A DNA stretch of 64,000 nt. It comes from Candidatus Latescibacterota bacterium (GTDB taxonomy: Bacteria; Latescibacterota; UBA2968; UBA8231). Shown here one piece after another: positions 33,860 through 63,091 of the stretch. A model generated the notes under the pieces. The model did not search any database, was not told where the DNA came from, and saw only the letters and a list, made by a program, of their open reading frames with translations. Positions within the stretch are counted from its first letter, which is position 1, and each line of letters opens with the position of its first letter. The stretch is taken from NCBI GenBank assembly GCA_965219385.1, contig CBDCNM010000001.1, positions 918,631-982,630 of the forward strand. Reading direction: 5' to 3'. The translations under genes were made by a program, and so were the position numbers.

Positions 33860-35065
33860 ATGCACACCGTAGAACTGGTGGAAGAGGAGGCGACCCAGAT
33901 TCCAGAAAACGCGATGGACAAAAGGGCCGTCCTCAGACTCCACCAAGAATACAATAAGCAGATCCACATCCAGTTTCCCAGCTTGCCGACTCCCGATCAT
34001 TACATCCTGCGCTCCAGAGGTTATATTGGCCAGATCGCAATGGCGGCTGAATGCGTGCTGCACATTCGGCCCAAGGTGGGTTTGCGCAATCTCTTCGGCA
34101 TGGTGGAATACGCCTATCAACTCAGCTCTTTCCAACTTTTTGACCAGGCCACCTCCTGCGGGACCCTGGGAGAGTTCATTGAGCACCTGATTGCCGTACT
34201 GCTAGGAAAAGTAAGGGTACGGGCCCACAGGGGGTTGTTCAGGGACTATGTTGAAAAAGAGGAGGATCTGGCGTATCTGCGTGGACGATTTATTGCCGAT
34301 TTCTCCCAAACCACTACCAGGGCCCACCGATTGGGTCTAAGGTGCAGATTCCAGGAACAAACCACAAATTTGCCCGATAATCAGATCCTGGCCTGGACCC
34401 TCCACTGCTTGCGACGCTTTCCCCTGCAACGCCCGGATTTAAAACACATGATTTATCAGGTTTTCCGTCAGCTGTCAGGGGCGGTAGACCTGAGGTATAT
34501 CCGCCCTGAAGATTGCCTGGACCGTAGCTATCACCGCCTGAATCAGGACTACGAGCCCATGCACGCCCTGTGCCGCTTCTTCCTGGAGCACTCAGGACCA
34601 TCATTGGCGATGGGAGACCGAAAATTCATGGCTTTTCTGGTGTACATGCCGGCTCTCTTCGAGTCTTTTATCGCCGAGTGGCTCAGGGCTCATCTGGGGG
34701 GGGCATTGGCCCTGAGTTCCCAGTACCGAGTTCCGCTGGATGGGAGCGAAAGGCTGGAATTTCGAATTGACCTGGTGCTGAACGAGGCTTCGAGCGGCAA
34801 GGTTCTGGCCGTGATGGATACAAAGTACAAGCGGGTGGAGGTGCCGGACGAGGCTGATATTCAACAGGTTGTGGCCTATGCCGTGCGCATGGGAACCTCC
34901 AGGGCCATTTTGATTTACCCCTCCACTTTTACCCGAATGCTTACCCTGCAAGTTGGAAATGTCAGGGTCCAGACCCTCGTATTTGATCTCGATGGGGATT
35001 TGAATGAATCGGGGGAATTATTTAAAAAACAGCTTCTGCAAGGTATAGATCAAGAAGATAAATGA
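33860..35065 (+). CDS. mcrC: McrC-like PD-(D/E)xK endonuclease
   Basis: IRPKV, YHRLNQDY, MPALFE, RIDLV...MDTKYK, DIQQVVAY; 1 bp after mcrB. Confidence 0.9.
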   Translation: MHTVELVEEEATQIPENAMDKRAVLRLHQEYNKQIHIQFPSLPTPDHYILRSRGYIGQIAMAAECVLHIRPKVGLRNLFGMVEYAYQLSSFQLFDQATSCGTLGEFIEHLIAVLLGKVRVRAHRGLFRDYVEKEEDLAYLRGRFIADFSQTTTRAHRLGLRCRFQEQTTNLPDNQILAWTLHCLRRFPLQRPDLKHMIYQVFRQLSGAVDLRYIRPEDCLDRSYHRLNQDYEPMHALCRFFLEHSGPSLAMGDRKFMAFLVYMPALFESFIAEWLRAHLGGALALSSQYRVPLDGSERLEFRIDLVLNEASSGKVLAVMDTKYKRVEVPDEADIQQVVAYAVRMGTSRAILIYPSTFTRMLTLQVGNVRVQTLVFDLDGDLNESGELFKKQLLQGIDQEDK

Positions 35066-35089
35066 CGTATAAAGTAAGTTATGTAAACA
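35062..35089 (+). other. dif-like (XerC/D-type) site 1
   Basis: ATGACGTATAA-AGTAAG-TTATGTAAACA. Confidence 0.6.
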
Positions 35090-35096
35090 AAAAATT

Positions 35097-36356
35097 CTAC
35101 CTAACCAAGAACAAACTCAATTCAGGTACATAAGTAACAAGGAACAATATGGCCAGAAGGATGAGCAAGAAAGGTAAAGAGGCCCAGTAGAGCTTGAGCA
35201 CCGGCTTTTCAAAACGGATACTGGCGATGAACAGGTTGAGTCCTACCGGAGGAGTGGAGTAGCCGATTTCAAGATTGGTCAAGAAAATGATCCCCAGGTG
35301 GATAGGGTGAATATCATAGGCCAGGGCAATGGGCAGGATGAGAGGAACCACCACCAGGAGGGCCGAAAACATGTCGATCATGCAACCCACGGCCAGGAGA
35401 AAGAGGTTGAGCAGGATCAGAAATACCACCCGGTTGCTGATATGCTGCTCGATAAAGCCGAGGAGCTGGTTGGGAATCTCGGCATCGATCATGTAGTTGG
35501 TATAGGCCAGGGCCGCGGCCATAACCACGATGATGCCACCCACCAGAACCATGGTTTCGCGGATGATGCCAGGGAGTTGCCTCCAACGAATTTCGCGGTG
35601 GATCGCCATCTCCACCACCAGAATATAGAGGGCGCTGAGAGCAGCGGCTTCGCTCACGGCGATGGTACCGCTGAAAATACCCCCCATGACGACAAAGGGA
35701 AGCAACAGCTCCCACATGCTTTCCCGCATTATCGCCAACAGGTCGACTGGTTTTACCGGGATGTCCGGGGCGTGTTTGCTGCCTTTGTAGAAACTGTAAA
35801 GAGAGAGAGCCCCTACCATGACCAGTCCGGGAATAATGCCGGCTAGAAAGAGCTGGTCGATCGGGGTTTCAGCAACGGTCCCCGCAACGATGCCGTAAAT
35901 GATCAAAGGGATGCTGGGAGGAAAGAGCAAGCCTAGACTTCCCGAAGTCGTAATCAGCCCCAGGGTGAAGTTTTCCGGGTAGCCATTCTTGCGTAGGGCG
36001 GGATATAAAAGCCCTCCAAGAGCAACGATGGTCATCCCAGATGCCCCGGTAAAGGCGGTGAACAGGGCACAGACCACAATAGCCATGATGGCCAGCCCAC
36101 CAGGGAGCCAGCCCAGAAGAGCTTGGGAGAGTTTGACCAGGCGGCTGGCGGCATTGCTTTCGGCCAGTAAAAAACCGGTAAAGGCAAATAGGGGAATAGC
36201 GGTGAGGGTAGGGGTTTCGGCGATTCGGTACATCTCTATGAAAATCACCGTGAGATCGATATCGCTGCGGTAGAAATTGAGCAGGGACAGAGCCGCAATA
36301 ATGACAAAGAGGGGGGTGCCGACCAAGGCGAGCAAGGACAAGAAAAAGGTGCTCAT
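35097..36356 (-). CDS. dctM: TRAP transporter large permease DctM
   Basis: AIPLF, LFPPSIP, EIGYSTPPVGLNLF. Confidence 0.92.
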   Translation of the reverse strand: MSTFFLSLLALVGTPLFVIIAALSLLNFYRSDIDLTVIFIEMYRIAETPTLTAIPLFAFTGFLLAESNAASRLVKLSQALLGWLPGGLAIMAIVVCALFTAFTGASGMTIVALGGLLYPALRKNGYPENFTLGLITTSGSLGLLFPPSIPLIIYGIVAGTVAETPIDQLFLAGIIPGLVMVGALSLYSFYKGSKHAPDIPVKPVDLLAIMRESMWELLLPFVVMGGIFSGTIAVSEAAALSALYILVVEMAIHREIRWRQLPGIIRETMVLVGGIIVVMAAALAYTNYMIDAEIPNQLLGFIEQHISNRVVFLILLNLFLLAVGCMIDMFSALLVVVPLILPIALAYDIHPIHLGIIFLTNLEIGYSTPPVGLNLFIASIRFEKPVLKLYWASLPFLLILLAILFLVTYVPELSLFLVR

Positions 36357-36853
36357 GGGCCCCCTCTCCGGCGAAAATTGCCGCGGTTACGCACGACCTG
36401 GAAGAGGAATTTCAGGCCCATCAGGCTGAAACTGATAGGAAAGATCAGCTGTAGTTTCCAGGTGGGAATTTCCCCCAATGCGTGGGTTAAATGCTCTTTC
36501 TCATCCCCTATAAATTGCAGGGAAATCCAGGTTAGGAGGCCACACACAAGGGCTGAAAAGATTCCGCTTAACCCTTCCAGTAAAGCGCGGTTTCGAGGGG
36601 GAAAAAAACGGAGGAGGGCATCTATTTTGATGTGTTTGCACTTGTGGGTGGCAATGGAGGCCCCGAGAAAACTGGTCCATAAGACGAGGTGGCGGACCAG
36701 GGGATCGCCCCATAGCAAGGTAAGAGAAAAAAAATTCCGCAGGATGATCTGGGCGAAGGCCAGCAGAATCATGGCGCCCACCAAAAGGACCAGGGTTGCT
36801 TCTTCCAGGTGCTTGAAAAAGCGACAGAGGGAATAGCGTTCCTCAGGAGCCAT
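36353..36853 (-). CDS. dctQ: TRAP transporter small permease DctQ
   Basis: QIILRN, LWTSFLGA, HIKID; 4 TM segments. Confidence 0.88.
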   Translation of the reverse strand: MAPEERYSLCRFFKHLEEATLVLLVGAMILLAFAQIILRNFFSLTLLWGDPLVRHLVLWTSFLGASIATHKCKHIKIDALLRFFPPRNRALLEGLSGIFSALVCGLLTWISLQFIGDEKEHLTHALGEIPTWKLQLIFPISFSLMGLKFLFQVVRNRGNFRRRGGP

Positions 36854-37856
36854 CGGTGGCGGTTTGCCGCTGGCGAAAAGCATCGAGGTGAAGATGGACC
36901 AAGTCAAAGGCCTCCTGGGAGAAAGCCTTGCCCACCAGTTCGGGAATGGATTCTCGCACCAGTTCCCTGAAGCTTTGAATTTCTTCCTGCGGAGGGATTA
37001 CCAGTTCCACGCCCTGGTCTTGCATGATTTGAAAGGCTTCCCGATTGTCCTGGCGGCTCTGGAGCACCTGCTGACGCACGCGCCTTCTGGAAACCTCGCG
37101 CAGGATGGTTTGCTGCTCTGAGGATAGCCGGTCAAATTTCCGCTTGGCAACAAGTAGGACGCCAAGGGTGTAGTTGATGGGCAGTTGGGTGATGTATTTT
37201 ACGCGGGTAAACCATTGCATAACTATTGCGGCAGAGGGAGGGGCGTAAACCACTTCGACAAGGTTGGTCTGTAGCCCCAGCAATACATCGGGAATAATGA
37301 GGGGGACCGAGGTTACCTCCGCTTTGCGAAAGAGAACCTCGGTGATAGGCTCTCCTTCGAGGCGCCAAACCTTAAGTCCTTTAATAGCGTCGCGGCTGTA
37401 CACCGGACTTTTGGAGAGGATGTGGACAAAACCTATATCGGTCCACCCCAACAAGATAAATCCATTCTCCTCGTAGCCTTTCTGGTAATAGGCATCCATC
37501 TGTTCGAGCACGTAGTCGATTTCTTCATAATTGTCAAAGAGAAAAGGCATCTCCAGAGCCAGTAAATCGCGGAAAATATCGCTGGCGCCCTGCCCTCCAA
37601 AGCCGCCGGCGTGTAGCTGGCCCACCCGGATTTTGCGCAACATGACGTCCTCGTCGCCCTGGACGCCCCCTGGATAGATTTTAAAACCCACATTGCCGCC
37701 CGTTTTCTGGCGCACTTCGGTATCAATGGTTCGCAGGAGTGTGATCCAACTACTGCCCTCGGGTGCGAGGGTGGCCAGTTTGATGAGGTGTTTCTGGCCC
37801 ATTGTAGCCCCGGGCAGGAAGAAAAAGAGGATCAGGCCAAAACTAAAAATACGCAT
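36843..37856 (-). CDS. dctP: TRAP substrate-binding protein DctP (TatP type)
   Basis: IKLATLAPEGSSW, YPGGVQGDE. Confidence 0.9.
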   Translation of the reverse strand: MRIFSFGLILFFFLPGATMGQKHLIKLATLAPEGSSWITLLRTIDTEVRQKTGGNVGFKIYPGGVQGDEDVMLRKIRVGQLHAGGFGGQGASDIFRDLLALEMPFLFDNYEEIDYVLEQMDAYYQKGYEENGFILLGWTDIGFVHILSKSPVYSRDAIKGLKVWRLEGEPITEVLFRKAEVTSVPLIIPDVLLGLQTNLVEVVYAPPSAAIVMQWFTRVKYITQLPINYTLGVLLVAKRKFDRLSSEQQTILREVSRRRVRQQVLQSRQDNREAFQIMQDQGVELVIPPQEEIQSFRELVRESIPELVGKAFSQEAFDLVHLHLDAFRQRQTATDGS

Positions 37857-38721
37857 CTGTTTCCTCTAAATATTTAATTGCCATCTTCTGAGCCGTTGCG
37901 TTTTGCAAGGTGAGTGCGGGATTCTGGTCGATGGGCATTTTCAGGACTTTTTGCAGCAGGGATTCGTATAGCTGGCGGTCGAAAATCCGACGTGCATAAA
38001 ATCTGGCCATTTGCACGTAGACCATCAAGGATTGATCCTGGTTGATCTCCAGGGCTTTGTTGAAATGCTCAAGAGATTTTTCGGGATTGCCGCCCAGGGA
38101 TTGGGGCAGAGCTGCATGGTATATACCCAGAAAGACATGCGGGCTGCCGTAGTAGAAGGTCTCATCGGTGGCCAAAACCCATTCCATCAAGAGTATGACC
38201 TTGGGTAGATCGGCGAGAGTGGCCATCGAACCGGTGTTTGCACTGATCCAGGCGCCCCAGCTGCTGGCAGCCCAGAATACCAGCGGCACATCACTGGCTT
38301 TGAGGTGGTAGATGAGCTGGCTAAAATCGCTGTAGGGGGCGTTGAGATGGGGACGAATTTTATGGTTTTGGGCCAGGGCTTTGAGGCTATAGGTCTTGGC
38401 CCTGTGGTAAATGCGGCGAGCCCGTTCGGGGTCATCGGCTTCGATCAGACTTCCATAGGCAGTATACAGTTCGGCGGCTTGCAGCAGGCGTTGAGGGTCG
38501 TTGGGACTGCTTTCGAGCAGGCCTTCCACAAGCAAAAGAAAGGTCGGCAGCGCTTGAGTTACCAAGGCAATATCATCGTGTTTGCCGGTGGCAGCGGCCA
38601 CAGCGCTCACCAAGGAACCGGTAGCTGCGTTCTTAAGTCTTGCGGCACAACCAGTAAGACTGCCAGCCAGGGTAAACTGTAGAACCACAAATGCCAGGCT
38701 ACTGAACTTCAGGAAATGCAT
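37843..38721 (-). CDS. TRAP-associated TPR lipoprotein TatT (TPAT system)
   Basis: Lipobox LTGC, helical/TPR-like, LGGNPEKS; directly upstream of dctPQM. Confidence 0.8.
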   Translation of the reverse strand: MHFLKFSSLAFVVLQFTLAGSLTGCAARLKNAATGSLVSAVAAATGKHDDIALVTQALPTFLLLVEGLLESSPNDPQRLLQAAELYTAYGSLIEADDPERARRIYHRAKTYSLKALAQNHKIRPHLNAPYSDFSQLIYHLKASDVPLVFWAASSWGAWISANTGSMATLADLPKVILLMEWVLATDETFYYGSPHVFLGIYHAALPQSLGGNPEKSLEHFNKALEINQDQSLMVYVQMARFYARRIFDRQLYESLLQKVLKMPIDQNPALTLQNATAQKMAIKYLEETDAYF

Positions 38722-38994
38722 AAAAGACTGGAACCAGTGGAGAATGGAAAAGCCGTATGGGAGCGGTAAGTAAATATCTCAACCGGAAAATTGAAAGTCA
38801 AGCAAGGTAAAAGCCCGCCCCCAGGTGAGGCGTGCAGGACCTATATCGAGGTCTTTGACGCCCAGAGTCGGGTGGGGTTCCGCTCAGTCGACCTGCTGGG
38901 TGCTTATTCAATACTGGGGACACTTTTTATAAGTGATTGATTTTCAATAAGTTATGCAATATGGCACTCAAATCCATAACTTGTTGTTTCTACG

Positions 38995-40107
38995 TCACTT
39001 ATGAATTTGAGATCGCTCAAATTGGCCGTTTTGCTCAAAAAGTGTCCGAACCATTGTTATTGAATCCTGCAGACAGGTCCAGGGATCCGTGGCGTCTTCG
39101 CAGGTTTTGATGGTGGCAAGGGTCAGGTCCATGCGCTTGTTTTTCAAACTATAAAGGGTTGCGAAACGATCCAGATTCCGGTGGTAACGCCGATAGGAAA
39201 GCAGCCGAGCATTGTTGACTTTCCAATCGAGAAAACCATCGTAATTGTGGATCGTGAACTCGCTGCGGATGGCTTTGAAATGATCCTGGGCTCGGCGAAA
39301 GACCTCCTGTCGCTTTTTTATTACGGCTTCTCTGGACAACCCCAGCGAGTACAGACTGTCCAGCGATCCGACCACACCTTTCATGAAAGCCCGGAAGCGG
39401 CCCTGGTCTTTTCGGCCCTGAATGGTCTGTTGAATGAGAGGGGCATCTGGGCCATGGGTTGCGGCCAGGAAAGTCAAGGAACCTGTTTGGCCCACAAAGG
39501 TGGCAAGGCTTTCGTTGAAGTCCGCGTGCCCCTTGACATATATAGTCCCGTGGGTAAGTTCGTGCAAAATCAAATCCGCCAGACTCTCCTCGGGGTAGTC
39601 GATCATGGTGCTGAGAACGGGATCGGAAAAAAAGCCCAGCGTGCTGTAGGCCGATACCGGGCGCAGCATCACGTCCAAATTCCGTGCCCGGAGATTATCG
39701 CGTTCCCGCAGGCCCAATTCCCTGGTAAAGAAGCCTTTGTAGGGCACTTTGCCCACGATTGGAAATTCCCACAAATAAGGCTCAAAGCGGTCGGGGGGCG
39801 AAGCGCTGATATTCCAGCTGACGGGATGGCCCTCTGTATCAAAAAAACAGGTGTAATTAGAGGACTCCTCCAGGCCGAAATAGTCTGTGGCGAATTCCTT
39901 TATCTTTTTAATAAAAATAAGTTTATTGAGGATGTGGGGGGACAGATCCGGGTCGGCCAGAAGCCCATCAATAGGCTCGCAGCTCAGGATAATGCGGGCC
40001 TGGCCGCGGAACAGGTGCCAGTAGTAGTTGATCTGGCAGCCGTTCAGCAAAAAGAAAAAGGCCAATCCCAGGAGGAAGCGGCCATAATCAGACCAGCTTC
40101 TCCCCAT
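38995..40107 (-). CDS. Putative aminopeptidase lipoprotein
   Basis: LNGC lipobox, FPIVGKVPYKGFF, AYSTLG, HELTH...FNES zincin motif. Confidence 0.85.
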   Translation of the reverse strand: MGRSWSDYGRFLLGLAFFFLLNGCQINYYWHLFRGQARIILSCEPIDGLLADPDLSPHILNKLIFIKKIKEFATDYFGLEESSNYTCFFDTEGHPVSWNISASPPDRFEPYLWEFPIVGKVPYKGFFTRELGLRERDNLRARNLDVMLRPVSAYSTLGFFSDPVLSTMIDYPEESLADLILHELTHGTIYVKGHADFNESLATFVGQTGSLTFLAATHGPDAPLIQQTIQGRKDQGRFRAFMKGVVGSLDSLYSLGLSREAVIKKRQEVFRRAQDHFKAIRSEFTIHNYDGFLDWKVNNARLLSYRRYHRNLDRFATLYSLKNKRMDLTLATIKTCEDATDPWTCLQDSITMVRTLFEQNGQFERSQIHK

Positions 40108-40558: not shown

Positions 40559-40765
40559 GGTACTGACGCCTCCAGTCTGATTTTGCCATTGATCCAATGC
40601 GAAACCATTTAGAATATAAGGGCGGTAGGGGATTTGGCAAATTGAAATTCAATTGATTATCTTAGTGATCAGTTCAATTGTCAGCGGTGACTCGCAACGA
40701 GGGGCAGCGGACAGGAAACCCGTTCCCAGGGTGATCTGATCACGCCCAAAGAAGAAGGAAAATCG

Positions 40766-41797: not shown

Positions 41798-41814
41798 AAG
41801 AGGACAGGTCTATT

Positions 41815-43029: not shown

Positions 43030-43046
43030 ATCAGGAGATAAGAAAG

Positions 43047-43155: not shown

Positions 43156-43232
43156 GGCCTATTAGCTCAGCTGGATAGAGCGCTAGTCTCCGGAACTAGA
43201 GGTCGCAGGTTCGAATCCTGCATAGGTCACCA
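43156..43232 (+). tRNA. tRNA-Arg(CCG)
   Basis: Cloverleaf; anticodon arm CTAGT-CTCCGGA-ACTAG; GTTCGAATC; encoded CCA. Confidence 0.95.
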
Positions 43233-43252
43233 TATATCTTCGCCTGACCGGT

Positions 43253-43329
<77 letters not shown>

Positions 43330-43390
43330 TTAAAAATCGAGTTAAAGGGCCGCGAGTATTCACTCGGGGCCCTTTCTTCCGTGAGTTGAT

Positions 43391-43468
43391 CGGGGTGTAG
43401 CGCAGCCCGGCTAGCGCACCTGCTTCGGGAGCAGGGGGTCGCCGGTTCGAATCCGGCCACCCCGACCA
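43391..43468 (+). tRNA. tRNA-Pro(CGG)
   Basis: CCTGC-TTCGGGA-GCAGG; GTTCGAATC; CCA. Confidence 0.95.
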
Positions 43469-43472
43469 TTGT

Positions 43473-43505
43473 AACCCCCTGCAAGACAATATCTTGCGGG
43501 GGGTT
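43473..43505 (+). terminator. Hairpin after the tRNA cluster
   Basis: AACCCCCTGCAAGA-CAATA-TCTTGCGGGGGGTT; weak U tract. Confidence 0.5.
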
Positions 43506-43626
43506 CCTTGCCGTCAACGACCTACGTCACGTTGCTGTAACATTGGGCTTTATCCACTCGGTGTGTCCGCCCTCGCGGCGTCGGCCGCTGGGAAACCTCC
43601 GCAGCACAACCACATCTGAAAAATCC

Positions 43627-43780
43627 ATGATGCTCCCGGCCGAAATCCCGATGGTCCTTGGGTTCCTGCTGGCACCGTACTCGGTCGTTTCCAACGATTC
43701 CATCCAGACGCTGGGGACATTCCTGTCGTCGAACTCCTTCCGGCCCTGGTGGGTCCTGTGGCTGTTTTCGTCCAGTGTGT
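43627..43780 (+). pseudogene. N-terminal fragment of a membrane protein fused to unrelated sequence
   Basis: VLGFLLAPYSVVSNDSIQTLGTFLSSN...PWWVLWLF, then the hydrophobic character is abruptly lost. Confidence 0.5.
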
Positions 43781-43927
43781 GGGATCTGGAGGATGACCGG
43801 CCGAATACCGGGATGTGTGGCCGCGGTTCCGGCCCATGCCGCCGACCTGGCCGCCGTGCGCCACCAACTGCTGGCCCAGGAGCGTCCCCTGCCCCGGACC
43901 TGGACCTACTAATCCAAAGGAGATCCC

Positions 43928-44729
43928 ATGTCCACCCAGACCCTCACCCCTATCCAGAAGCAGTACCAGAGCGACGGTTTTTATATACCCGAAGACCCTA
44001 TTTTGCCCCCCGAAGTAGTCGAGCAGGCTGTCGCCGGCATGGATGCGGTGCGGGAAGGCCGCTACGATTCTGGCCAGCCGCCCCAGCCCTCGCGCTGGAA
44101 TCCGGGCGACGATCCCGGCCAACTGTGCAAAATAGAATTGCCCCAACAGGCCGATCTGGGCATTCGCGCCCTGATCAGCCATGCCGATTTGGGCCAGTGG
44201 CCCGCCCGCGTCACCGGGGCCCGCATAGTGCAGGTGTGGTGGACGCAATTGCTGTACAAACCGCCCCAGCCCGAGGATCGGGCCGTAGATCTCAACATCG
44301 GTTGGCACCAGGACCGTTACTACTGGCAGGTCTGGGAAGAAGGCAGCGAACTATTCACTGCCTGGGTGGCCCTCAGCGATGTGGGCGTTGATACGGGTCC
44401 CATGCGCTTTGTCCGGGGCTCGCACCAATGGGGCCTGTTGGACGAAGGCGGTTTCTACCGCCAGGATCTCGACGACCAGCGCGCTGCCATTCCGGTCCCG
44501 GAGGGCTGCATTTGGCGGGAGCAACCCGCTCTGCTGCCGTTGGGCGGCGCCAGTTTCCACCACTGCCTCACTTTTCACGGCAGCGGCCCCAACCGCTCCT
44601 CTGGTCCCCGGCGTAGCCTGGCCACTCAACATGCGCACGGAAAAGTCGCGCCCCGTCGACGACCGCCGCGCTGGCCTCACCACGTTTATCGACGACTTCG
44701 AGCGCAACCCCGTCATCTACCGGGAATAG
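43928..44729 (+). pseudogene. PhyH-family Fe/2OG dioxygenase with a 3' frameshift
   Basis: GWHQD, TAWVAL, FHGSGPN; the native-looking tail (LNMRTEKSRP...IYRE*) is in another frame after about 44624 and ends 3 bp before the next start. Confidence 0.75.
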
Positions 44730-44732
44730 ACC

Positions 44733-45482
44733 GTGGATCCCATCCTGCAAAAGCTGGGTCTGGAGCCCTGTACTCTGAGTCAGCGCCATTTCGATGAATT
44801 GGACCGACAGGGTTTCACCATTTTACCCGATATTATCGAGCCAGCCTGGCGTGCCGAGCTGGCCCGGGCCTTTGACCAGTTATCCGCCGAGGAAGGGGGC
44901 GACCGGGCTGGTGCCGAAGTGGGCCTGGTGCCCGGTGTGCGCCGCCTGGCCGACCTGGTCAACAAGGGGGAGGTCTTCGATCCGGTCTACCTGCACGCCA
45001 ATCTCCTGCACGCTGTATGGCGCGTTTTGCAGCGCCCCTTCAAGTTGCACTCGCTCAACGGGCACGACCCTCTGCCCGGCCATGGCCAGCAGCACTTGCA
45101 CACCGACTGGGGCGGCGACCGGACGGCCTTTCACGTGGTCAATTCCATGTGGATGCTCGACGAGTTCACCGCGGATAACGGTGCCACCCGCGTGGTGCCC
45201 GGAACGCACCTGCTGCCCCAAAAGCTGGATGAGTACGTCGAGGATCGGCTGGCTCCTCGCGACGACCAAGTCCAATTGCTCGCTCCGGCCGGCTCGATGG
45301 GCATCTTCAACGGCAGCTTGTGGCACAGCTGCAGCAACAACAATACGCGGGCCAAGCGGCGCACCCTGCACTGCGCTTTTATCGCCCGCGAGCATCCCCA
45401 GCAAACCGACCAGCGCCAGTACCTGCGGCCCGAGACCGACCGGCGGCTCAGCCCCCTGGCCCGCTATATTCTGGATGTGTGA
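44733..45482 (+). CDS. PhyH-family Fe/2OG dioxygenase
   Basis: LHTD, NGATRVVPGTH, LWH. Confidence 0.88.
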   Translation: MDPILQKLGLEPCTLSQRHFDELDRQGFTILPDIIEPAWRAELARAFDQLSAEEGGDRAGAEVGLVPGVRRLADLVNKGEVFDPVYLHANLLHAVWRVLQRPFKLHSLNGHDPLPGHGQQHLHTDWGGDRTAFHVVNSMWMLDEFTADNGATRVVPGTHLLPQKLDEYVEDRLAPRDDQVQLLAPAGSMGIFNGSLWHSCSNNNTRAKRRTLHCAFIAREHPQQTDQRQYLRPETDRRLSPLARYILDV

Positions 45483-45496
45483 GAGGAGATTTTCCC

Positions 45497-46872
45497 ATGA
45501 CCCCGCTTTCCACCCGCGTCACCACCACGCTAACCAATGCGTTGGAACGGCGCAGTATCGCCTTCGAGTACCAGCAAACGCCCATCTACCATAAGCCCGT
45601 TACCATCGAAGCTCCCCTCGACGAAAAGGGCGGCCTCGCGGTAGAACTGCCGTTTACTGAGGCGCAAATAGTTTCGGTCCGCCTCGACGATGAGGTCAAG
45701 CTCTTCTTGGAACCGGGCGACCAGTTGCACATTGACGCGGACTTGCTCGACCTGCCCCGGTCCCTCCGCTTTTCCGGCCGGGGCGCGGCTAACAACCAGT
45801 TCCTCGCCGCCCTGCGGGCCTGCGGGCCCGCTTCCCCGACTCCCTGCGCATCGACTACAAAGACCTGGAGGCCGACGCCTTTCGCAAAATGGTCGACCAG
45901 CGGCGCTTAGAGTTGGAGTCCTTTTTGGACGAGGGTTGCAGCCAGTATCAACTCACCCCGGGTTTTATTGCTTACTACCGTGCCGAAATCACCTATGAAT
46001 GGGCCGAACAACTGGTTTCTTATCCGATCGGTTACTACATGCAACAAAACGGACGGGAGCACAAAGTCCTCCCCGCAGACTATTACGACGTCCTCAATCA
46101 AGTCAAACTGGTTGACGAAGCGGCTATCGGCATCACCCATTACCAAAACTTTCTGGAGTACAATTTCGATCGTATAGAAGACGAAGCCTATGAACGAGCC
46201 CAACTGGAGCAACTATCCGAGGAGCAATCCCGAGACCTGCTTGAAACCTACACCCGCTACAATCAGGCCAAGCGGGCCTTGCACGGCAAAGTCCTGTACT
46301 TCTTTCTCGCCGGTGAAATCGTCTCCGACTTTCAATTCGGCCGGTTTGACCAAGGTGAACAACGCCTAGCCGAATTCCTCCAGGACAACCCCCATCCCGA
46401 ATACACCGAGGCCGTAGAGGAGGTCGTGCGGGAAACCGCCAAGCTCAAACCCGGCCAGCCCGCCCCGGACTTCACCCTCGACGATCTCCAGGGCCAAAGC
46501 GTCTCCCTGAGCGATTTCAGAGGCCAAGCGGTTTTCCTTGACTTTTGGTCGAATGGGTGCAGTCTGTGCATCGAAGATTTGCCCTCTATAGAAAAGATCA
46601 AACAGCAGACCAGAGACCAAAGGGTCGTCTTCCTGAGTATCTCCCTGGACCGCAGCGCCGACGAGTGGCGCCAAGCGGTGGATGAGCACGGCCTGACCGG
46701 CGTCCACGTCCACTCCCCGGGCGGCTGGCAGGCGGCGATGGCTCAATTGTACCAGGTCCGGGGCATACCTTCCTATTTCCTGGTGGATCCGGCCGGCCGC
46801 ATCGCTGGCCGCGTCGACCATGTCTTCGATGTCCCGGCCGTGGTCGGCCGCATTGGGGAGGTGCTGTCCTGA
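45497..46872 (+). pseudogene. TlpA/redoxin-family protein frameshifted by an 8-bp tandem duplication
   Basis: CCTGCGGG x2 at 45811-45826; removing one copy joins the frames (ALRARFPDSL...KMVDQRR); C-terminal APDFTL...FWSNGCSLC. Confidence 0.8.
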
Positions 46873-47232
46873 GCGCGATGACGGTACCTATTTCATTAGG
46901 AAGTGAGGTGATACCCCGCGGACGAGCGCCCATGAGTCCAGCCATGCGTCAGTCTCAGGCTTCCCGCTGGACTATTCGCTTGCCCCGCAAGCGCTCCCGC
47001 AACTCGACCGCCGCGGCCCCGCCCCCGCCCCGAGCGTCGCCGATCCAACACCAGGCGTACAACCCGTCGAATTCAAGTAAATTACCAGCCCAGCGACCCC
47101 ATGGAGTGCGTGGCCCGGGGCGATGCCCAGCGGCTTGCCAGGAAAGTAGAATAGGGTTTTTTTATAGGCGTTATTGACCTGCCTGGTGGTCCTCGGCGGG
47201 GATAACTTTACCAACCAAGGGGAGATTAATCC

Positions 47233-48135
47233 ATGCCAACCAAGGAACAGATAGATCAGTACTGGGACCAGGGCTATTTCATAGCCGACGATGCCGTGGA
47301 ACCCGACATGCTGGACGAGCTGGAGGCGGCCACCCGGCGCGTGCGGGACAAAACCCGATCCGATGAGGTGGACCTCCGGTCCAACCGGGGGGAGGGCCGC
47401 GAGCCCACGGTCATCTGGGGGCTCTTTGCGCCCGAGTACGGCGAGCCCGTCTTTGCCGAATACATGATATCCAAACCCATCGAATCCTATGTCCATGCCT
47501 TCATAGGAGCCGATCTGCGCCTGGGGTTCGAGATCATTTTCTGCACGGGCAACCATGCCCCCTACGATACCGGCTGGCACCGGGACTTTGGGGCCACGGA
47601 GGTGCAGGACGGCACCGAAGAAGAGGAGATGGAGGTCCTCAACCGACCCATAACCAGACTCAAGTGGCACCTGGCCCTGGTGGACGATCCATGCCTGTGG
47701 GTCGTGCCGGGCAGCCAGCGGCGCTATCGCACGGATGAGGAACGGGAGTGCTTGCACAATACTCGCAGGGCGAGTATATCGGGGGAGAAGTCGATCGAGG
47801 TGAAGAGGGGGCAGACCCTTTTCTGGAGCGGCAACCTGATCCACCGGGGACGGGTTCCAGAGGGCTGCGAGGAACGTCTGACCCTGGCGGCAGGTCTGAC
47901 CAAGCACTATGACACCGAGCCGATCCGAGACCCTTATCCAACGAACGAGGACGAGGTGGACGAGCGCTACAGGTGGCGGATGGCCAATAATATACGCGAA
48001 ATCCTGCCCGGGAAGATGCAGTTTTACTACGATCGGTGGCGCGCACTGCAAAAAGGCAGCGGCAAGATCGACGCTATCAATGACGAAGTCAGAAAAATAG
48101 GCTACACTCGCTGGCAGGAGCAGCAGAAGGACTGA
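47233..48135 (+). CDS. PhyH-family Fe/2OG dioxygenase
   Basis: YWDQGYFI, GWHRD, LWVVPGSQ, LIHRG. Confidence 0.8.
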   Translation: MPTKEQIDQYWDQGYFIADDAVEPDMLDELEAATRRVRDKTRSDEVDLRSNRGEGREPTVIWGLFAPEYGEPVFAEYMISKPIESYVHAFIGADLRLGFEIIFCTGNHAPYDTGWHRDFGATEVQDGTEEEEMEVLNRPITRLKWHLALVDDPCLWVVPGSQRRYRTDEERECLHNTRRASISGEKSIEVKRGQTLFWSGNLIHRGRVPEGCEERLTLAAGLTKHYDTEPIRDPYPTNEDEVDERYRWRMANNIREILPGKMQFYYDRWRALQKGSGKIDAINDEVRKIGYTRWQEQQKD

Positions 48136-48178
48136 ACAGTCCCATCCGCCCGCCGTTACTCCTTGAGTTACAACAAAT

Positions 48179-48206
48179 ATGTCATATAATATATGTTACG
48201 TAAACA
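48179..48206 (+). other. dif-like site 2 (contains the predicted miaA start codon)
   Basis: ATGTCATATAA-TATATG-TTACGTAAACA. Confidence 0.6.
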
Positions 48207-49131
48207 AATCATCATCATAATCGCTGGGCCTACCGCATTAGGAAAAACCTGCCTGGGCATCCAGGTGGCCCTTAAACTGGGCGGCGAGATTATATCGGCT
48301 GATTCCAGGCAAATCTACCGATATATGGATATAGGGACTGCAAAACCCGAACCCGGCGACCTGGAACGGGTCAAGCACTACTTCATAGATATCAAAAACC
48401 CGGATGAGTACTACAGTGCCGGGCGCTTTGGCAGGGAGGTGCGTGCGTGTATTAAACAGCTGGGAGAGAGAGGAATACCACCTATCTTAGTAGGTGGATC
48501 CGGCCTTTATCTACAGGCGGTACTGGACGGTTTTTTCGAGGATGAGACCGACTATTCTGAAATTAGAGCCCATTTTAAGCAGCGCCTGGAACGACAAGGC
48601 CTTGCTGTCTTGTACCAGGAGTTGGGCCGGTGTGATCCCCAGGCTCAGACCAGGATATCTCCCCGCGACAGCCAGCGGATCCTGCGGGCCCTGGAAATAG
48701 CTCATGCAAGGGGGGAAGTTCAGCACGCCCGCTGGGCAAAAGGGGCGGAGGCCGCACTCGACTGTTCGCCCCTGGGGTTTTGTCTCGAAATGAACCGTGA
48801 ATCCCTTTATCAGCGCATTGACCACAGGGTAGATGCAATGCTTGAAAAAGGCCTGCTCGGCGAAGTCGAGTCGCTGGTGGCCATGGGGTATGGCAGAGGA
48901 AGTTACGCCATGGAAACCTTCGGTTACCAGGAAGTCCTGGATTACCTGGAGGGCAAGTTGTCCCTGGACGATGCGATTGCCACCATCAAATGCAGATCCA
49001 GGCACTACGCCAAACGCCAGTTGACCTGGTTTCGCAGGGACCGTCGGCTGCGCTGGATGGATTTAGACGCGTGGGGTATCCAGGGGGTACAGGAAAGAAT
49101 TGCAACCCAATACAGGTCAAGAGAACCGTAG
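48193..49131 (+). CDS. miaA: tRNA dimethylallyltransferase
   Basis: GPTALGKT, SADSRQIYRYMDIGTAKP, VGGSGLY, YAKRQLTWFR. Confidence 0.96.
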   Translation: MLRKQIIIIIAGPTALGKTCLGIQVALKLGGEIISADSRQIYRYMDIGTAKPEPGDLERVKHYFIDIKNPDEYYSAGRFGREVRACIKQLGERGIPPILVGGSGLYLQAVLDGFFEDETDYSEIRAHFKQRLERQGLAVLYQELGRCDPQAQTRISPRDSQRILRALEIAHARGEVQHARWAKGAEAALDCSPLGFCLEMNRESLYQRIDHRVDAMLEKGLLGEVESLVAMGYGRGSYAMETFGYQEVLDYLEGKLSLDDAIATIKCRSRHYAKRQLTWFRRDRRLRWMDLDAWGIQGVQERIATQYRSREP

Positions 49132-54808: not shown

Positions 54809-54843
54809 CCCCGATTGGCTCTACTGACAAGGGAGAGAGCTTC

Positions 54844-57243: not shown

Positions 57244-57269
57244 GGGCCCGATGACAGGATATTGACACA

Positions 57270-57551: not shown

Positions 57552-57557
57552 ATACCA

Positions 57558-57917
57558 ATGGCCTCTCCTTATAGAATTAACCGTGTCCGCGAACTTCTTC
57601 TGCGCGAGTTCAGCGCTATTATCACGCGCCTGAAGGATCCCCGGATTGGCCATGTGACTGTGGTAGATACCGAAGTTTCGCAGGATATGCGCTACGCTAC
57701 GATTTTTGTCAGCTTGATGGGTAGTCAAATCGAGCAGCAGGAAGCCAAAGAAGCGCTCCAAAGCGCCCGGGGGTTTATTCGGCGGGAAGTCGCCCATCGA
57801 GTTCCTTTCAGGTACACCCCTGAAATAAGGATCCTATACGATGATACGGCCGAAAGGGCGGCCCATCTCACGGCTTTGATCAACAGCCTTGATGAAACGG
57901 GGGATGGCGGAGCATAA
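57558..57917 (+). CDS. rbfA: Ribosome-binding factor A
   Basis: LKDPRI, RYTPEI. Confidence 0.93.
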   Translation: MASPYRINRVRELLLREFSAIITRLKDPRIGHVTVVDTEVSQDMRYATIFVSLMGSQIEQQEAKEALQSARGFIRREVAHRVPFRYTPEIRILYDDTAERAAHLTALINSLDETGDGGA

Positions 57918-58848
57918 CTTCGAAGGCATTCTGGTTTTAGATAAAAAAAAGGGGCCTACCTCTCACGATGTGGTCGCAGATTTGCGCTCGATTACAGGCG
58001 TGCGACGCCTAGGCCATTGCGGCACCTTGGATCCGCTTGCCAGTGGGGTCCTGGTGGTTTGTCTGGGGAGGTTCACGCGGCTGAATGAGTGGTTGAGCGC
58101 GGGAGAGAAAACCTACGAAGCGACCTTTCATTTAGGGGCGACGAGCGATACTTATGATGCCCAGGGCTGTATCACTCCGACTTCCCGTATAAAGCTGCCC
58201 TCTGCGGATGATGTAGTCCAACATGTGCAGAGTTTCACCGGAACCATAGAGCAGATCCCACCCGCTTTCTCCGCGGTGAAAGTCCGGGGAGTACCCAGTT
58301 ACAAGCTGGCGCGGCGCAATCAGGCTGCACCTTTGCAAGCACGAAGGGTACACATCGCGGAGATCGAGGTCCGCGAATACGACTTTCCTTTGCTCAAGCT
58401 GCGGATTGTTTGTTCCAGGGGGACGTATATTCGGTCGCTGGCAGCGGATCTGGGGGAGCGGCTGGGCTGCGGAGGGTATGTCCAGGAGTTGAAACGGTGC
58501 CGGGTTGGCACACTGGGCCTGGACATTGCTTTTTCATTGCAACAAATCCGGGAGGCCGTAGCTAGGGGCCAACTGGAGCAATGCTTCGTTGCCCCTCATG
58601 CGGCATTGGATGGTTTGCGGCCAATCACCCTCGGAGCCCATGGACTCCAGCGCTTTGCGCATGGCAATCCAGTACAACTGGAACAACCATGCAGCGCTCG
58701 AGACAACCTGGTCTGTGCGGTGTACGATAGAGATTTGACTCTGTATGGAATAGCCCAGTGGGACGTTGCGGATCAAAGTTTGCGGCCCCTGAAGGTATTG
58801 CGCCAGTCAAAGACGGGCGGGTACAAGGTTGCGAAGCCTCGGTTGTGA
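57904..58848 (+). CDS. truB: tRNA pseudouridine(55) synthase
   Basis: GHCGTLDPLASG, QIPPAFSA, CSRGTYIRSL. Confidence 0.96.
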   Translation: MAEHNFEGILVLDKKKGPTSHDVVADLRSITGVRRLGHCGTLDPLASGVLVVCLGRFTRLNEWLSAGEKTYEATFHLGATSDTYDAQGCITPTSRIKLPSADDVVQHVQSFTGTIEQIPPAFSAVKVRGVPSYKLARRNQAAPLQARRVHIAEIEVREYDFPLLKLRIVCSRGTYIRSLAADLGERLGCGGYVQELKRCRVGTLGLDIAFSLQQIREAVARGQLEQCFVAPHAALDGLRPITLGAHGLQRFAHGNPVQLEQPCSARDNLVCAVYDRDLTLYGIAQWDVADQSLRPLKVLRQSKTGGYKVAKPRL

Positions 58849-59224
58849 AGCCATTGCATTTCAGGGGGCGGGTAGAGCGCGGTCGGGCCCGGGGGCGGGA
58901 ACTGGATTTCCCACGGCTAACCTGGCCTTAGAGTCTCCTCCAAAAGACCTGGAACAAGGGGTCTACGTAGGACGGGTGCATTGGGATGAAGGTCCACTAT
59001 ACGGCGTGCTGGTAAATTGGGGCAATCGTCCTACGTTCGGGGGAGAAGATCGGGCGATGGAATTACACATCCTGGATTTTTCCGGTAATTTATATGGCAA
59101 GGTCCTGGATTTAACCATTTTTGAGCGCTTGCGCGATGAGCAGTACTTTGCGGCAAAAGAATTACTGATAAGACAAATCGAGATGGATCTTGAACAAGCG
59201 CGCAGGATCCTGGATAACACTTAA
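58845..59224 (+). CDS. Stand-alone riboflavin kinase domain (RibF C-terminal half) with an apparent 1-nt deletion near 58904
   Basis: GTG overlaps the truB TGA; MKPLHFRGRVERGRARGREL / GFPTANL, GNRPTF, ELHILDF, LRDE. Confidence 0.8.
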
Positions 59225-59247
59225 TAGTAAGGAGACGGAGGTGTAAC

Positions 59248-59517
59248 GTGTCGATTACCGCAGAAAAGAAAAAAGAGCTGGTAGAGGAGTACGGCAGGAA
59301 CGAAACAGATACAGGGTCCACAGCCGCCCAGATTGCCATTTTGACGGAACGGATTCGCCACCTGACCGTCCATCTGCAAACCCATGATAAGGATTTTGGG
59401 TCCCGCCGCGGCCTGTTAAGGTTGATAGGACAGCGCCGGCGCTTGCAGACGTATTTCCAGCGTTCCCATCCCGAAGAATACGCCCAGCTGATAAAGAGCC
59501 TTGATTTGCGGCGCTGA
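59248..59517 (+). CDS. rpsO: 30S ribosomal protein S15
   Basis: DTGSTAAQIAILT, SRRGLL. Confidence 0.97.
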   Translation: MSITAEKKKELVEEYGRNETDTGSTAAQIAILTERIRHLTVHLQTHDKDFGSRRGLLRLIGQRRRLQTYFQRSHPEEYAQLIKSLDLRR

Positions 59518-59565
59518 ATCTTTGGGCATACCCCCAATCAAAGCAAATTCCTACGAGAGCGAGAA

Positions 59566-61638
59566 ATGATCCATAAAATAGAGACAATCTTAGGAGGTCG
59601 CACCCTTTCGCTTGAAACCGGAAAGGTCGCAAAACAGGCCCATGGGGCCGTCTGGATTCAGTACGGTGAAACGGTGGTGCTGGTTACGGCCTGTAGAACT
59701 GATACAGATGAGGACCGTGGTTTTTTTCCATTGACGGTAGATTATCGCGAAAAAGCCTATGCTGGCGGGCGAATTCCCGGCAATATATTCAAGCGCGAGG
59801 GGCGGATGAGCGAAAAAGAAACCCTGAGTGCCCGCCTCACGGACCATCAAATCCGTCCCATGTTTCCCAAGGGGTTTTACCGCGAGGTGCAGGTGTACAT
59901 AAGCATATTGTCCTCAGATGGTGAAAACGAAGCCGATGTCCTGGGCATGTTGGGCGCCTCCGCGGCTTTGTGCATTTCGGACATTCCATTTTCCGGGCCC
60001 ATGGGTGCGGTGCGGGTGGGGCGGATCGAGGGCGAGTTTTTTATCAATCCCACCAATACCCAACTGGAAGAGAGCGACCTGGATATCATTGTATCCGGGA
60101 CCCGGGATTCCATTGCCAGTGTAGAAGGTGGGGCTCATGAGATTTCCGAAGCCGATTTGCTCGAAGCCCTCAAATTCGGGCATCTACACATCCAGGAACT
60201 GGTCGAGATACAGGATGCCCTGGTTGAACAGGTCGGCAAGGAAAAATTAGAACTTGCCCCGGTAGAGGTGGACGAGGCATTGCCCGCTGCCGTTGCCGAA
60301 CTGGCCATGGCACGCATAGCCGAAGCCAATCGCACGCCGGTTAAAGAGGACCGCCAAGGGCTGATCAGTGCCATTAAAGCCGAGGTCCAGGAAAATCTGG
60401 CAGAGGGGTTTCTCGACTCTGAAAAATACATAGCCGAGGCCCTGGACAACCTGATAAAGTCTGATATGCGCCGCATGATCCTGGATGAAAAACAGCGCAT
60501 CGATGGGCGTGGACTCAGAGAGGTCCGTCCTATAAGCTGTGAAACCGGGGTTTTGCCCCGGGTGCACGGCTCGGCCATTTTTACCCGGGGTCAGACCCAG
60601 GCCCTGTGCGTGGCCACTCTTGGGACCAAATTGGATGAACGCATGGTGGACGATCTGCGGGGAAAGAACTTCAAATCCTACTTCGTAGATTATAATTTCC
60701 CCGCCTTCAGTGTAGGGGAGGTGCGTTTCGAACGAGGCCCTGGCCGACGCGATATCGGCCATGGACATCTGGCCGAGCGGGCTATTGAGCCTGTTGTCCC
60801 TTCAATCGACTCCTTCCCCTATACCCTCCGGGTGGTCTCCGACATACTCGAATCCAACAGCTCCAGTTCAATGGCCACAGTCTGTGGTGGTTCCATGGCC
60901 CTCCTGGATGCGGGAGTTCCGCTAAAGACTCCGGTGTGCGGCGCCGGTGTAGGTTTGGTCAAGGAAGGCGATCAATGGGAGTTGTTGACCGATATTTTAG
61001 GGGCCGAAGACTTTTTGGGAGATATGGATTTTAAAGTCGCCGGTACCAAGGATGGAATTACCGCCATTCAGATGGATATTAAAATTCAAGGTGTCAGCTT
61101 CGAGATTATGCAAGAGGCCCTGGAACGGGCGCGAGAAGGTCGGTTGCACATCCTCGAAGTAATGAACCAGTGCATTGACACTCCACGGCCGGAGTTGTCC
61201 AAATATGCCCCGCGCATCGAGTTTTTAAAGATTGATCCGGCCAAGATCGGCGCTGTGATCGGCCCGGGCGGCAAGACCATCCGCGAGATCGAAAAGACCG
61301 GGGCGACCGTCAACGTAGAGGACGATGGGACCATCACCCTGGCTTCTGTGGAAGGAGGGCCCGCCGAAGAGGCCAGGCGGATGATCGAGTCGATCACAGC
61401 CGAAGCCGAGATCGGCAGGCAGTACAACGGCACGGTCAAACGCATCATGCCCTTTGGGGCCTTTGTCGAGATCCTGCCCGGTAAAGAGGGGCTGGTTCAC
61501 ATTTCCGAACTAGCTCATCGGCGGGTAGGTAAGGTCGAAGATGTAGTCGAAGAGGGGCAAGAAATCGATGTTAAGGTCCTCGATATTGACACGGGGGGCA
61601 AAATTCGCCTGAGCCACAAGGCCACCCTGAAAAAATAA
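59566..61638 (+). CDS. pnp: Polyribonucleotide nucleotidyltransferase
   Basis: [27 protein letters not shown] and S1 domains. Confidence 0.98.
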
Positions 61639-61736
61639 CCCGGTCAACGGCCTATTCGCCGCTGTTCACTGGTTGAGACTATCGAATATTCGCGCTTCGA
61701 TAGTCTTTTCAATTTCTGGATGGATTTGTACGAAGA

Positions 61737-63029
61737 ATGGATTCTACCTATATTGCGCAAATCAGCACCAAAGAAAATGAAGAAGTCGAATTGAGGGGCT
61801 GGCTCTACAATAAAAGGTCGAGCGGCAAGCTTCACTTTCTGCAGGTGCGCGATGGAACCGGGATCATTCAGTGTGTTGTGTTCGGGGGGGAGGTCTCTCC
61901 AGAGATCTTCCAACTTTGCGAGGAGTTAACCCAGGAGTCGGCTCTCATTGTCAGAGGGGTTGTGCGCCGTGACGAGCGCTCCCCTAGCGGTTATGAGATT
62001 GGAACTCGTGAGGTGGAGTGCCTCCACTGGAGCGAGGCTTATCCCATTACCCCGAAAGAACACGGGATGGCCTACCTGATGGACCATCGTCATTTATGGC
62101 TCCGGTCCACGCGGCCCCATGCCATTTTACGGGTCCGCAGCGAAGTGATCAAAGCCTGCAGGGACTTTATGGATGAGAGGGGGTTTACCTTGGCGGATGC
62201 GCCTATTTTTACCCCGGCTGCCTGTGAAGGGACCACCACACTTTTCGAAACCGATTACTTTGGCGAAAAAGCCTATTTGACTCAGAGCGGTCAACTGTAT
62301 ATGGAAGCGGCGGCTATGGCCTTTGGTAAGGTCTATTGTTTGGGTCCAACTTTCCGCTCGGAAAAGTCAAAGACCCGCAGACATCTGACCGAGTTCTGGA
62401 TGATCGAGCCGGAAATGGCTTATTGCGATCTGGCTGGAGATATGGATCTGGCCGAAGATATGGTGGCCTATATCGTGGAGCGGGCGCTGGAGAACAGACA
62501 GGAAGAATTAAAAACCCTGGAGCGGGATACCAGCAAGCTGGAAAGGATCCAAAAGCCTTTTCCCAGAATTTCTTATCAACAAGCTATTGGTATTTTGCAT
62601 GAGGAGGGGAGTGATATTCAGTGGGGTTGGGACCTTGGAGGTGACGACGAGACCATTGTTTCGCAGCAGTATGAATCTCCTGTTCTGGTGCACCGCTACC
62701 CCCTTGAGGTCAAGGCCTTTTACATGAAAGAAGATCCACAGGATCCAAGACTAGCACTTTGTATGGACATGCTCGCGCCCGAGGGGTATGGAGAGATCAT
62801 CGGGGGGGGGCAACGCGAGGACGATCTGGTGGTCCTGGAAAAGAAGATTCAGGCCCATGAACTTCCCCAAGAAGCCTTTGAGTGGTACCTTGATCTTCGG
62901 CGTTATGGGAGCGTGCCGCACGCCGGTTTTGGCATGGGTATTGAGAGGGTGGTGACCTGGATCTGTGGCCTCCACCACGTGCGTGAGACCATTCCATTCC
63001 CACGAACCTTACAGAGGTTGTATCCATGA
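61737..63029 (+). CDS. asnS: Asparagine--tRNA ligase
   Basis: [35 protein letters not shown]. Confidence 0.95.
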
Positions 63030-63063
63030 CAATTTTCCGTCAGATCGTCAGATTGAAGAAAAT

Positions 63064-63091
63064 ATGCCGTATAATATATTTTACGTAAATA
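63064..63091 (+). other. dif-like site 3
   Basis: ATGCCGTATAA-TATATT-TTACGTAAATA. Confidence 0.6.

Follow-up and report, generated by a model that had tools for sequence, protein, structure and literature searches.

The DNA analysed here, which we call the window, comprises 64,000 nt from a Candidatus Latescibacterota bacterium (assembly GCA_965219385.1, contig CBDCNM010000001.1, positions 918,631 to 982,630). It carries three short sites of the type of dif, the chromosomal recombination site of XerC and XerD. All three are 28 nt long, have two 11-nt arms with conserved cores around a 6-nt centre, and lie on the + strand within 28 kb. Site 1 (35062..35089, ATGACGTATAAAGTAAGTTATGTAAACA) is made up of a XerC-like arm ATGACGTATAA, the centre AGTAAG and a XerD-like arm TTATGTAAACA, and it occupies the gap between the convergent genes mcrC and dctM, the latter ending 7 nt past the site. 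Site 2 (48179..48206, ATGTCATATAATATATGTTACGTAAACA), with the left arm ATGTCATATAA, the centre TATATG and the right arm TTACGTAAACA, lies at the start of miaA. Site 3 (63064..63091, ATGCCGTATAATATATTTTACGTAAATA) is composed of the left arm ATGCCGTATAA, the centre TATATT and the right arm TTACGTAAATA. It starts 34 nt past the asnS stop codon and ends 386 nt before the ATG of a Xer-like tyrosine recombinase gene. The right arm version common to the three sites reads TTAYGTAAAYA. Since the window has a G+C content of about 55%, 28-nt AT-rich stretches like these are conspicuous.

The sites had been pointed out in a preliminary description made from the sequence alone, and its positions 35062, 48179 and 63064, its 11-6-11 layout and the + strand all agreed with our results. 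Its consensus, searched with up to three mismatches, matched the window at these three places only, and the same search on 100 dinucleotide shuffles of the window gave no match, which speaks against a motif that occurs here at random frequency. We also scanned the window with a weight matrix built from 118 listed comparator sites in other genomes. Sites 1, 2 and 3 scored 27.8, 36.2 and 23.5 bits, nothing else in the window reached 5 bits, and the top score over 200 block shuffles was 6.4 bits. Over the 28 positions, sites 1 and 2 are identical at 22, sites 1 and 3 at 21 and sites 2 and 3 at 24. The latter pair had been described as matching at 26 of 29 nt, and we found 27 of 30 over a slightly longer stretch (48175-48204 against 63060-63089). 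The overlap of site 1 with the mcrC stop codon was confirmed as well, the TGA (35063-35065) falling in the left arm, as was the position of site 3 between asnS and the recombinase gene. The three sites are genuine and of dif type.

The comparators came from a genome scan with the core common to the three sites, in which the variable positions were left free and TA was fixed in the centre. It returned at least 118 stretches, and the 118 listed ones each come from a different assembly, with one match apiece. Their sources are mostly Balneolaceae, Ignavibacteriota, Gemmatimonadota, Fibrobacterota, Delongbacteria and deltaproteobacterial or Syntrophales metagenome-assembled genomes (MAGs). The comparator consensus consists of ATGTCGTATAA, then TATATA or GATATG, then TTATGTAAA, then C or G, and then T. 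Positions that the pattern had left free were strongly non-random in the listed comparators: position 4 was T in 106/118, position 28 was T in 106/118, and the centre was mostly one of the two hexamers. Position 21 was T in all 118, despite the pattern permitting C. We followed the GC skew across the comparator site in the 57 loci that extend 5 kb or more to either side. Oriented as the window sites, 43 of them switch from positive to negative skew, 4 show the reversed change and 10 show no change of sign. Since the core marks single-match sites at skew switches in the listed genomes, it is the chromosomal dif core, and the dif-like nature proposed in the preliminary description is borne out.

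A regulatory function could also be considered for such a motif, which might act as an RNA element or be bound by a transcription factor as an operator or promoter box, with only a resemblance to dif. The motif includes a TATAAT-like hexamer, a promoter scan gave a weak match overlapping site 3, and the right arm of sites 2 and 3 contains the palindrome TTACGTAA. However, the sites have no consistent position relative to genes, site 1 being placed between convergent stops, site 2 covering a start codon and site 3 preceding a gene by 386 nt. An Rfam search over the whole window returned 4 tRNAs only, and there was no match at the sites. The same core is also found as single-match sites at skew switches in the 118 listed genomes. 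We therefore regard a regulatory box as very improbable.

The window sites share several deviations from the comparators. All three have A at position 28, a state seen in 2/118 listed comparators. Position 21 is C in sites 2 and 3, position 27 is T in site 3, and neither state occurs in any of the listed comparators. The XerD-arm core TTATGTAAA, present in 118/118 of them, is exact in site 1, and sites 2 and 3 differ from it by C21. The shared derived states argue for one lineage-specific version rather than three unrelated imports, and they suggest that the three sites form one lineage-specific dif-type system. The sites would be bound by Xer proteins.

Site 2 is built into a gene. The miaA gene for tRNA dimethylallyltransferase (48193..49131, + strand; TIGR00174, 287 bits, cut-off 149) has its start codon at 48193, and this ATG, which the preliminary description had not noticed, is formed by the last three bases of the site 2 centre. 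Together, the central ATG and the right arm encode MiaA residues 1-5 (MLRKQ). No other start codon for miaA was found ahead of the P-loop. When ATG is placed before the comparator right-arm core (TTA-YGT-AAA) it translates as M-L-C-K, and the window protein, with M-L-R-K, differs by the same T-to-C change that is seen in the site DNA. We looked for this start in other MiaA proteins. M(K)L(C/R)K is present in 20 of the 119 best non-self relatives, 16 of them among the best 32, which are 55-67% identical to the window MiaA (67% being the nearest). In an alignment of 23 such proteins with a median pairwise identity of 54% and a minimum of 44%, the L is kept in 96%, the C in 74% (the others being mostly R) and the K in 96%. 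Positions after the K vary, and indels follow directly. Most ML(C/R)K proteins continue with Q, consistent with the lineage-specific A at position 28, and the Arg variants suggest that the C21 form recurs in the clade. The motif is absent from more distant MiaA relatives, including named Latescibacterota, KSB1 and Gemmatimonadota. From the proteins of these relatives, a dif-type right arm appears to lie on the miaA start throughout a sub-clade, and site 2 is probably ancient. Our literature search found no report of a dif site at miaA and nothing comparable to this three-site arrangement, which does not prove that there is none.

Sites 1 and 2 have DNA of foreign-looking composition on their left. 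The mcrB-like and mcrC-like restriction genes (32236..35065, + strand) abut the XerC arm of site 1. Their segment has a GC content of 0.549 and a skew of +0.017, compared with +0.095 in the core DNA to the right. A 4.7-kb high-GC island (43470..48178, + strand) lies between tRNA-Pro(cgg) and site 2, and its left border is the cluster of tRNA-Arg(ccg), tRNA-Pro(ggg) and tRNA-Pro(cgg) (43156..43468, + strand). The island encodes two PhyH dioxygenases, an AhpC/TSA-like protein and open reading frames (ORFs) without assigned function, and it differs from the flanking core in GC content (0.609) and skew (-0.055). A Pfam scan of mcrB, mcrC and the five large island ORFs showed no integrase or transposase, which fits Xer-dependent elements. 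A repeat of the tRNA-Pro 3' end was searched for at the far end of the island and none was found.

The PhyH gene beside site 2 ends 43 nt before the site. Its nearest relative is 87% identical, which is closer than any relative of MiaA or of the recombinase. The mid-size contigs of the PhyH relatives have no sizes in common with those of the MiaA relatives, which means that the island does not travel with miaA. The window PhyH protein (47233-48135) was not returned as a 100% match, unlike MiaA and the recombinase. Most of its relatives are about 30 residues shorter, and the annotated start may differ from the true one. In the preliminary description, site 2 closed a decayed island behind the tRNA genes. 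Its position at the island end holds, but the decay does not, since the island genes look intact and the PhyH gene equals its 87% relative in length. Nor is site 2 itself likely to have come in with the island, the site being part of miaA and apparently conserved in relatives.

These segments raise the question of whether the sites serve as an active chromosomal platform, that is, as same-orientation landing pads at which mcrBC- and PhyH-type cassettes are still gained and lost through the host Xer proteins or the neighbouring recombinase. Several observations agree with this. Foreign-looking DNA without an integrase lies directly at the XerC arms of sites 1 and 2, with the mcrC stop even inside the arm. 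Site 2 is apparently conserved and its left neighbour is not, and a conserved Xer-like recombinase lies nearby. Multiple sites are also rare elsewhere: in the comparator loci, which cover about 10 kb around dif, a second site of at least 15 bits was found in only 2 of the 78 loci of at least 5 kb (1.31 Mb in total). Several copies close together are thus unusual, in line with the earlier remark that a chromosome usually carries one dif. However, the window contains no cassette with a site at both ends. The intervals between the sites measure 13 and 15 kb and hold mostly essential core genes. From site 1 to site 2 these are the transporter of the tripartite ATP-independent periplasmic (TRAP) type, an aminopeptidase-like gene, mreBC and the tRNA cluster, and from site 2 to site 3 miaA, tRNA-Gly, der, rimP, nusA, infB, truB, pnp and asnS. 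The one apparent cassette among the comparators (locus L050) is explained by a 151-nt repeat family with a dif-like stretch in it. We consider an active platform improbable. Of the multi-site cassette capture proposed earlier, the foreign-looking DNA left of sites 1 and 2 and a PhyH gene that does not travel with miaA remain in its favour, and the missing partner sites and the core genes in between count against it; cassette capture by these sites is a possibility, and only that.

Site 3 has the recombinase gene as its right neighbour. The 5' part of this gene (174 codons; 63478..64000, + strand) lies in the window and the gene runs past its end. The window part matches the 314-aa protein P0122, the full-length product, at 100%. 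P0122 contains the Pfam domains PF00589 and PF02899, and its motifs GLRRSE, HMFRH (HxxR), LRH and the tyrosine align with those of XerA, which places it in the tyrosine recombinase superfamily. It scored below the NCBIfam equivalog cut-offs of both XerC (128.3 bits, cut-off 335.15) and XerD (121.9 bits, cut-off 329.6), and the same was found for XerS (79.3 bits, cut-off 267), XerA (111.4 bits, cut-off 220) and the integron integrase (51.5 bits, cut-off 265). Against solved structures it reached 49 bits with XerA and 42 bits with E. coli XerD (1a0p). In a protein atlas, P0122 was found only in generic tyrosine-recombinase or XerC-family clusters.

The nearest relatives of P0122 are 80% identical, compared with 67% for MiaA, and many relatives at about 60% identity are named tyrosine-type recombinase/integrase [Candidatus Latescibacteria]. 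The named relatives of both the recombinase and MiaA come from Latescibacterota, KSB1, Calditrichota and Gemmatimonadota. Eight contig sizes are common to the MiaA and the recombinase matches (22238, 29385, 44960, 110832, 126607, 227865, 724129 and 1760904 bp). Since the shared contigs are as small as 22,238 and 29,385 bp, in these relatives the two genes are apparently no more than a few tens of kb apart, and some of the relatives do not have the ML(C/R)K start. As judged from these comparisons, the recombinase looks like a conserved, syntenic chromosomal gene of its own family and not like an island integrase, and in this respect the earlier interpretation is not supported. A candidate antitoxin remnant between site 3 and the recombinase gene (63104-63322, minus strand) was rejected, the frame having no start codon and no credible Pfam match.

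The GC skew is positive along nearly the whole window. The two core segments have almost the same skew (+0.095 and +0.096), although one of them contains mostly minus-strand genes and the other plus-strand genes only. Since the skew is equal whatever the gene strand, it reflects replication, and as it stays positive across sites 1 and 2, neither of these marks the terminus. Over the 909 nt from site 3 to the window end, the skew is -0.079, compared with +0.096 before the site. None of the 212 core stretches of 909 nt fell below -0.002. This points to a terminus at site 3 or to its right, and the gene order weakly supports a position near site 3. The der gene lies within 10 kb of dif and points toward it in 24 listed comparator loci (mostly Balneolaceae), and in the window it lies 2.6 kb to the right of site 2 and 11 kb to the left of site 3. 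These loci include one from Gemmatimonadota (L078), in which der and a merR-like gene point toward dif as they do toward site 3 in the window. In locus L023, an asnS gene 59.6% identical to ours is about 3 kb from dif. We also counted octamers that resemble the E. coli FtsK orienting polar sequences (KOPS) and found 12 on the + strand and 5 on the - strand with no change at any site, which is a weak test confounded by the skew.

Taken together, we propose that these are functional or recently functional lineage-specific Xer sites, with a module of site 3 and the recombinase, an island entry by Xer recombination whose traces have decayed, and centres that insulate the sites from each other. We hold this account with a little less than even confidence. 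The three sites would represent a lineage-specific version of dif in the terminus-proximal part of a chromosome of roughly 5.7 Mb. Site 3 and the recombinase 386 nt downstream would be the likeliest module for the resolution of chromosome dimers, comparable to the Xer systems with a single recombinase. Site 2 would be a second, ancient site, whose central ATG and XerD arm were taken into use as the opening codons of miaA and maintained in the sub-clade, and site 1 would be the third copy, in which the right arm is canonical and the centre differs. The mcrBC genes and the PhyH island would most likely have entered as circles without an integrase that carried a mimic of dif, by Xer recombination at a resident site as in integrative mobile elements exploiting Xer (IMEX), after which the outer hybrid sites would have decayed. 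Tyrosine recombination generally needs homology in the centre. For this reason the differing centres AGTAAG, TATATG and TATATT would block a completed exchange; they would hinder complete strand exchange between the sites and so protect the essential genes between them from excision. The dimer-resolving site, the arrival route of the islands and the insulation by the centres are parts that we infer.

A number of points weigh against this account. Scored against the comparator matrix, the window sites lie at the low end of the comparators (minimum 22.4, median 51.8 bits), and site 3, for which the dimer-resolving role is proposed, is the weakest overall with a score near the lowest comparator. 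At the positions that the search pattern had left free, sites 1, 2 and 3 score -10.3, -1.8 and -14.6 bits. Neither site 1 nor site 2 coincides with a skew switch, the negative skew beyond site 3 is seen over just 909 nt, and the canonical dif could lie elsewhere on the chromosome. The conservation of site 2 is read from the N-termini of the relatives' proteins, which cover the right arm only and not the XerC arm. P0122 is far under the cut-offs of XerC, XerD, XerS and XerA and is 42 bits away from E. coli XerD, and apart from one weak match no homologue of it was found near dif in the 118 listed comparator loci. It may be unrelated to these sites, and its synteny with miaA was deduced from contigs of equal size. 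Scans with the matrix and with half sites found no partner site or half site at the left ends of mcrBC and the island, in agreement with what the preliminary description had noted. Next to the PhyH island there is also a tRNA cluster, and such clusters are classical targets of integration; terminus regions gather foreign DNA anyway.

Some of these points would suit an explanation in which at least one site is an inert relic. Such sites could be pseudo-dif copies, no longer recombined, that were left by a past IMEX integration and excision or by a rearrangement of the terminus, with site 2 surviving only as coding sequence. C21, T27 and A28 deviate at positions that are otherwise invariant in the comparators, the pattern-free scores are negative, sites 1 and 2 are off the skew switch and the centres differ from each other. 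However, the arms are intact over 22 nt in all three copies, and the derived A28 found in each of them suggests a common constraint. Moreover, L-(C/R)-K persists among MiaA proteins of only 44-54% identity, with indels beginning right behind it; at an N-terminus that is normally variable, this is hard to explain by protein function. We consider relics unlikely, though with a real chance of being correct for at least one site.

We compared the arrangement with known Xer systems. In PMC5357621 and PMC3025954, dif is described as a unique 28-bp site in the terminus region, at the shift point of the skew, and Kono et al. give it as occurring once and, in 93.92%, in non-coding DNA (PMC3025954). The window sites resemble chromosomal dif with XerC and XerD in their 28 nt, two 11-nt arms, 6-nt centre and arm cores, which are those of the 118 listed genomes. 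They differ in that three direct copies lie within 28 kb, whereas one per replicon is usual, and in that two copies are off the skew switch, one is on a start codon and otherwise invariant positions are changed. Extra direct copies of dif-like sites are described as a hallmark of IMEX integration (PMC5357621; PMC9765430). As in the IMEX (the CTX and TLC phages, the gonococcal genetic island and Legionella LME-1), DNA without an integrase adjoins a dif-type site in the window, but neither segment has a second flanking site, and the DNA between the three sites is core and not mobile.

The pdif modules are carried on plasmids and are bounded by sites of alternating or opposite orientation. The window sites, in contrast, have all one orientation, are chromosomal and lie 13-15 kb apart with core genes between them. 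What they share with pdif modules is that Xer-type sites closely abut accessory genes, as is described for the short XerC/D sites of Acinetobacter plasmids (PMC5790767, PMC7399989). Site 3 and P0122, side by side at 386 nt, recall the single-recombinase modules XerS/difSL, XerH/difH and XerL/dif, and xerS is described as directly adjoining difSL (PMC5357621). But P0122 falls outside those families (79 bits with XerS against the 267 needed), and its neighbouring site has a two-arm core of the XerC/XerD type and not the difSL layout. Integrons likewise have a tyrosine recombinase gene beside a recombination site, with same-orientation sites farther along. They differ from the window in the integrase model (51.5 bits against 265), in the spacing of 13-15 kb and in the core genes; no attC-like structures were found in the window. 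By analogy, the arrangement would work most like dif/Xer with acquisitions of the IMEX type, and it departs from these systems in several of their defining features.

One further possibility draws these likenesses together. The region could be a fixed recombination platform at the terminus, in which a divergent, conserved Xer-like recombinase serves an array of dif-type sites in the same orientation. One site would be built into the start of miaA, defence and metabolic cassettes without an integrase would be captured on the XerC-arm side, and mismatched centres would shield the essential genes, making it a chromosomal counterpart of pdif modules and integrons. We regard this as speculative and give it rather little credence.

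The dif site is normally single, non-coding and at the terminus, and here three well-preserved direct repeats stand around essential genes. Since unchecked recombination between the repeats would kill the cell, one has to ask how Xer systems distinguish their sites. If a Xer site does form the first codons of a core gene and is kept in relatives, it would be an unusually clear case of a dual constraint on one stretch of DNA, and the site embedded in miaA could serve as a fixed landmark for tracing the evolution of the terminus. The recombinase belongs to none of the named Xer families and is more conserved than MiaA in the nearest relatives, and this makes it a candidate for a novel system of dimer resolution or site-specific recombination in a phylum that has hardly been studied genetically. 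Should the adjoining segments have come in by these sites, gene capture by Xer would reach well past Vibrio, Neisseria, Legionella and Acinetobacter.

We made some additional observations in the comparator collections. Locus L050, a Melioribacteraceae MAG, was at first sight an analogue of a two-site cassette, having two direct dif-like sites 7.2 kb apart and a centre like that of site 1. We ruled it out because both copies lie within a 151-nt repeat (94% identical) of which a third, partial copy exists, and because the skew has no switch in the canonical direction. The repeat copies are at 2688-2838 and 9886-10036 and the partial copy at about 9740-9797, and a dif-like 28-mer, similar to site 1 in its left arm and centre, forms the end of the repeat. 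The 7.2 kb between the copies contains ferredoxin-oxidoreductase and CBM9/DUF5916 genes. The other of the two loci with a second site is L041, a Chlorobiaceae MAG, in which two dif sites of 39.1 and 48.0 bits (2966-3094) are inverted and about 100 nt apart. When the window was compared with all comparator loci by blastn, no close relative was found, the best match being 70.8% over 260 nt in the asnS of L023. A plasmid collection searched with site 2 and its flanks gave only short matches at or near chance level.

Other genes of the window lie farther from the main subjects. Directly to the right of site 1 is the TRAP transporter operon with dctM, dctQ, dctP and a TAtT T-component gene (PF16811), at 35097-38721. 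About 30 kb to the left of site 1, an insertion sequence cluster (2581-6676) consists of three transposase genes in a row on the minus strand, of the DUF772, DDE_5 and IS4/IS5-type DDE_Tnp_1 families; their presence at 2.6-6.7 kb fits a terminus-proximal region. The stretch 10078-17207 encodes a 1465-aa protein, whose sole Pfam match is a C-terminal FtsX-like permease, followed by an 899-aa protein without a Pfam match, and an outer-membrane protein of the PorV/PorQ family is encoded at 26305-27384. The latter indicates an organism of the FCB group, and the names of the homologues suggest that it is Latescibacterota-like.

Finally, about 15 of the 118 listed dif sites are 500 nt or less from a contig end (for example in L023, L026, L036, L049, L051, L064, L111 and L113-L115). 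Breaks at dif seem to be more frequent in the assemblies than expected, for which insertions that vary between strains may be responsible, and contig L111 even begins inside its dif site.

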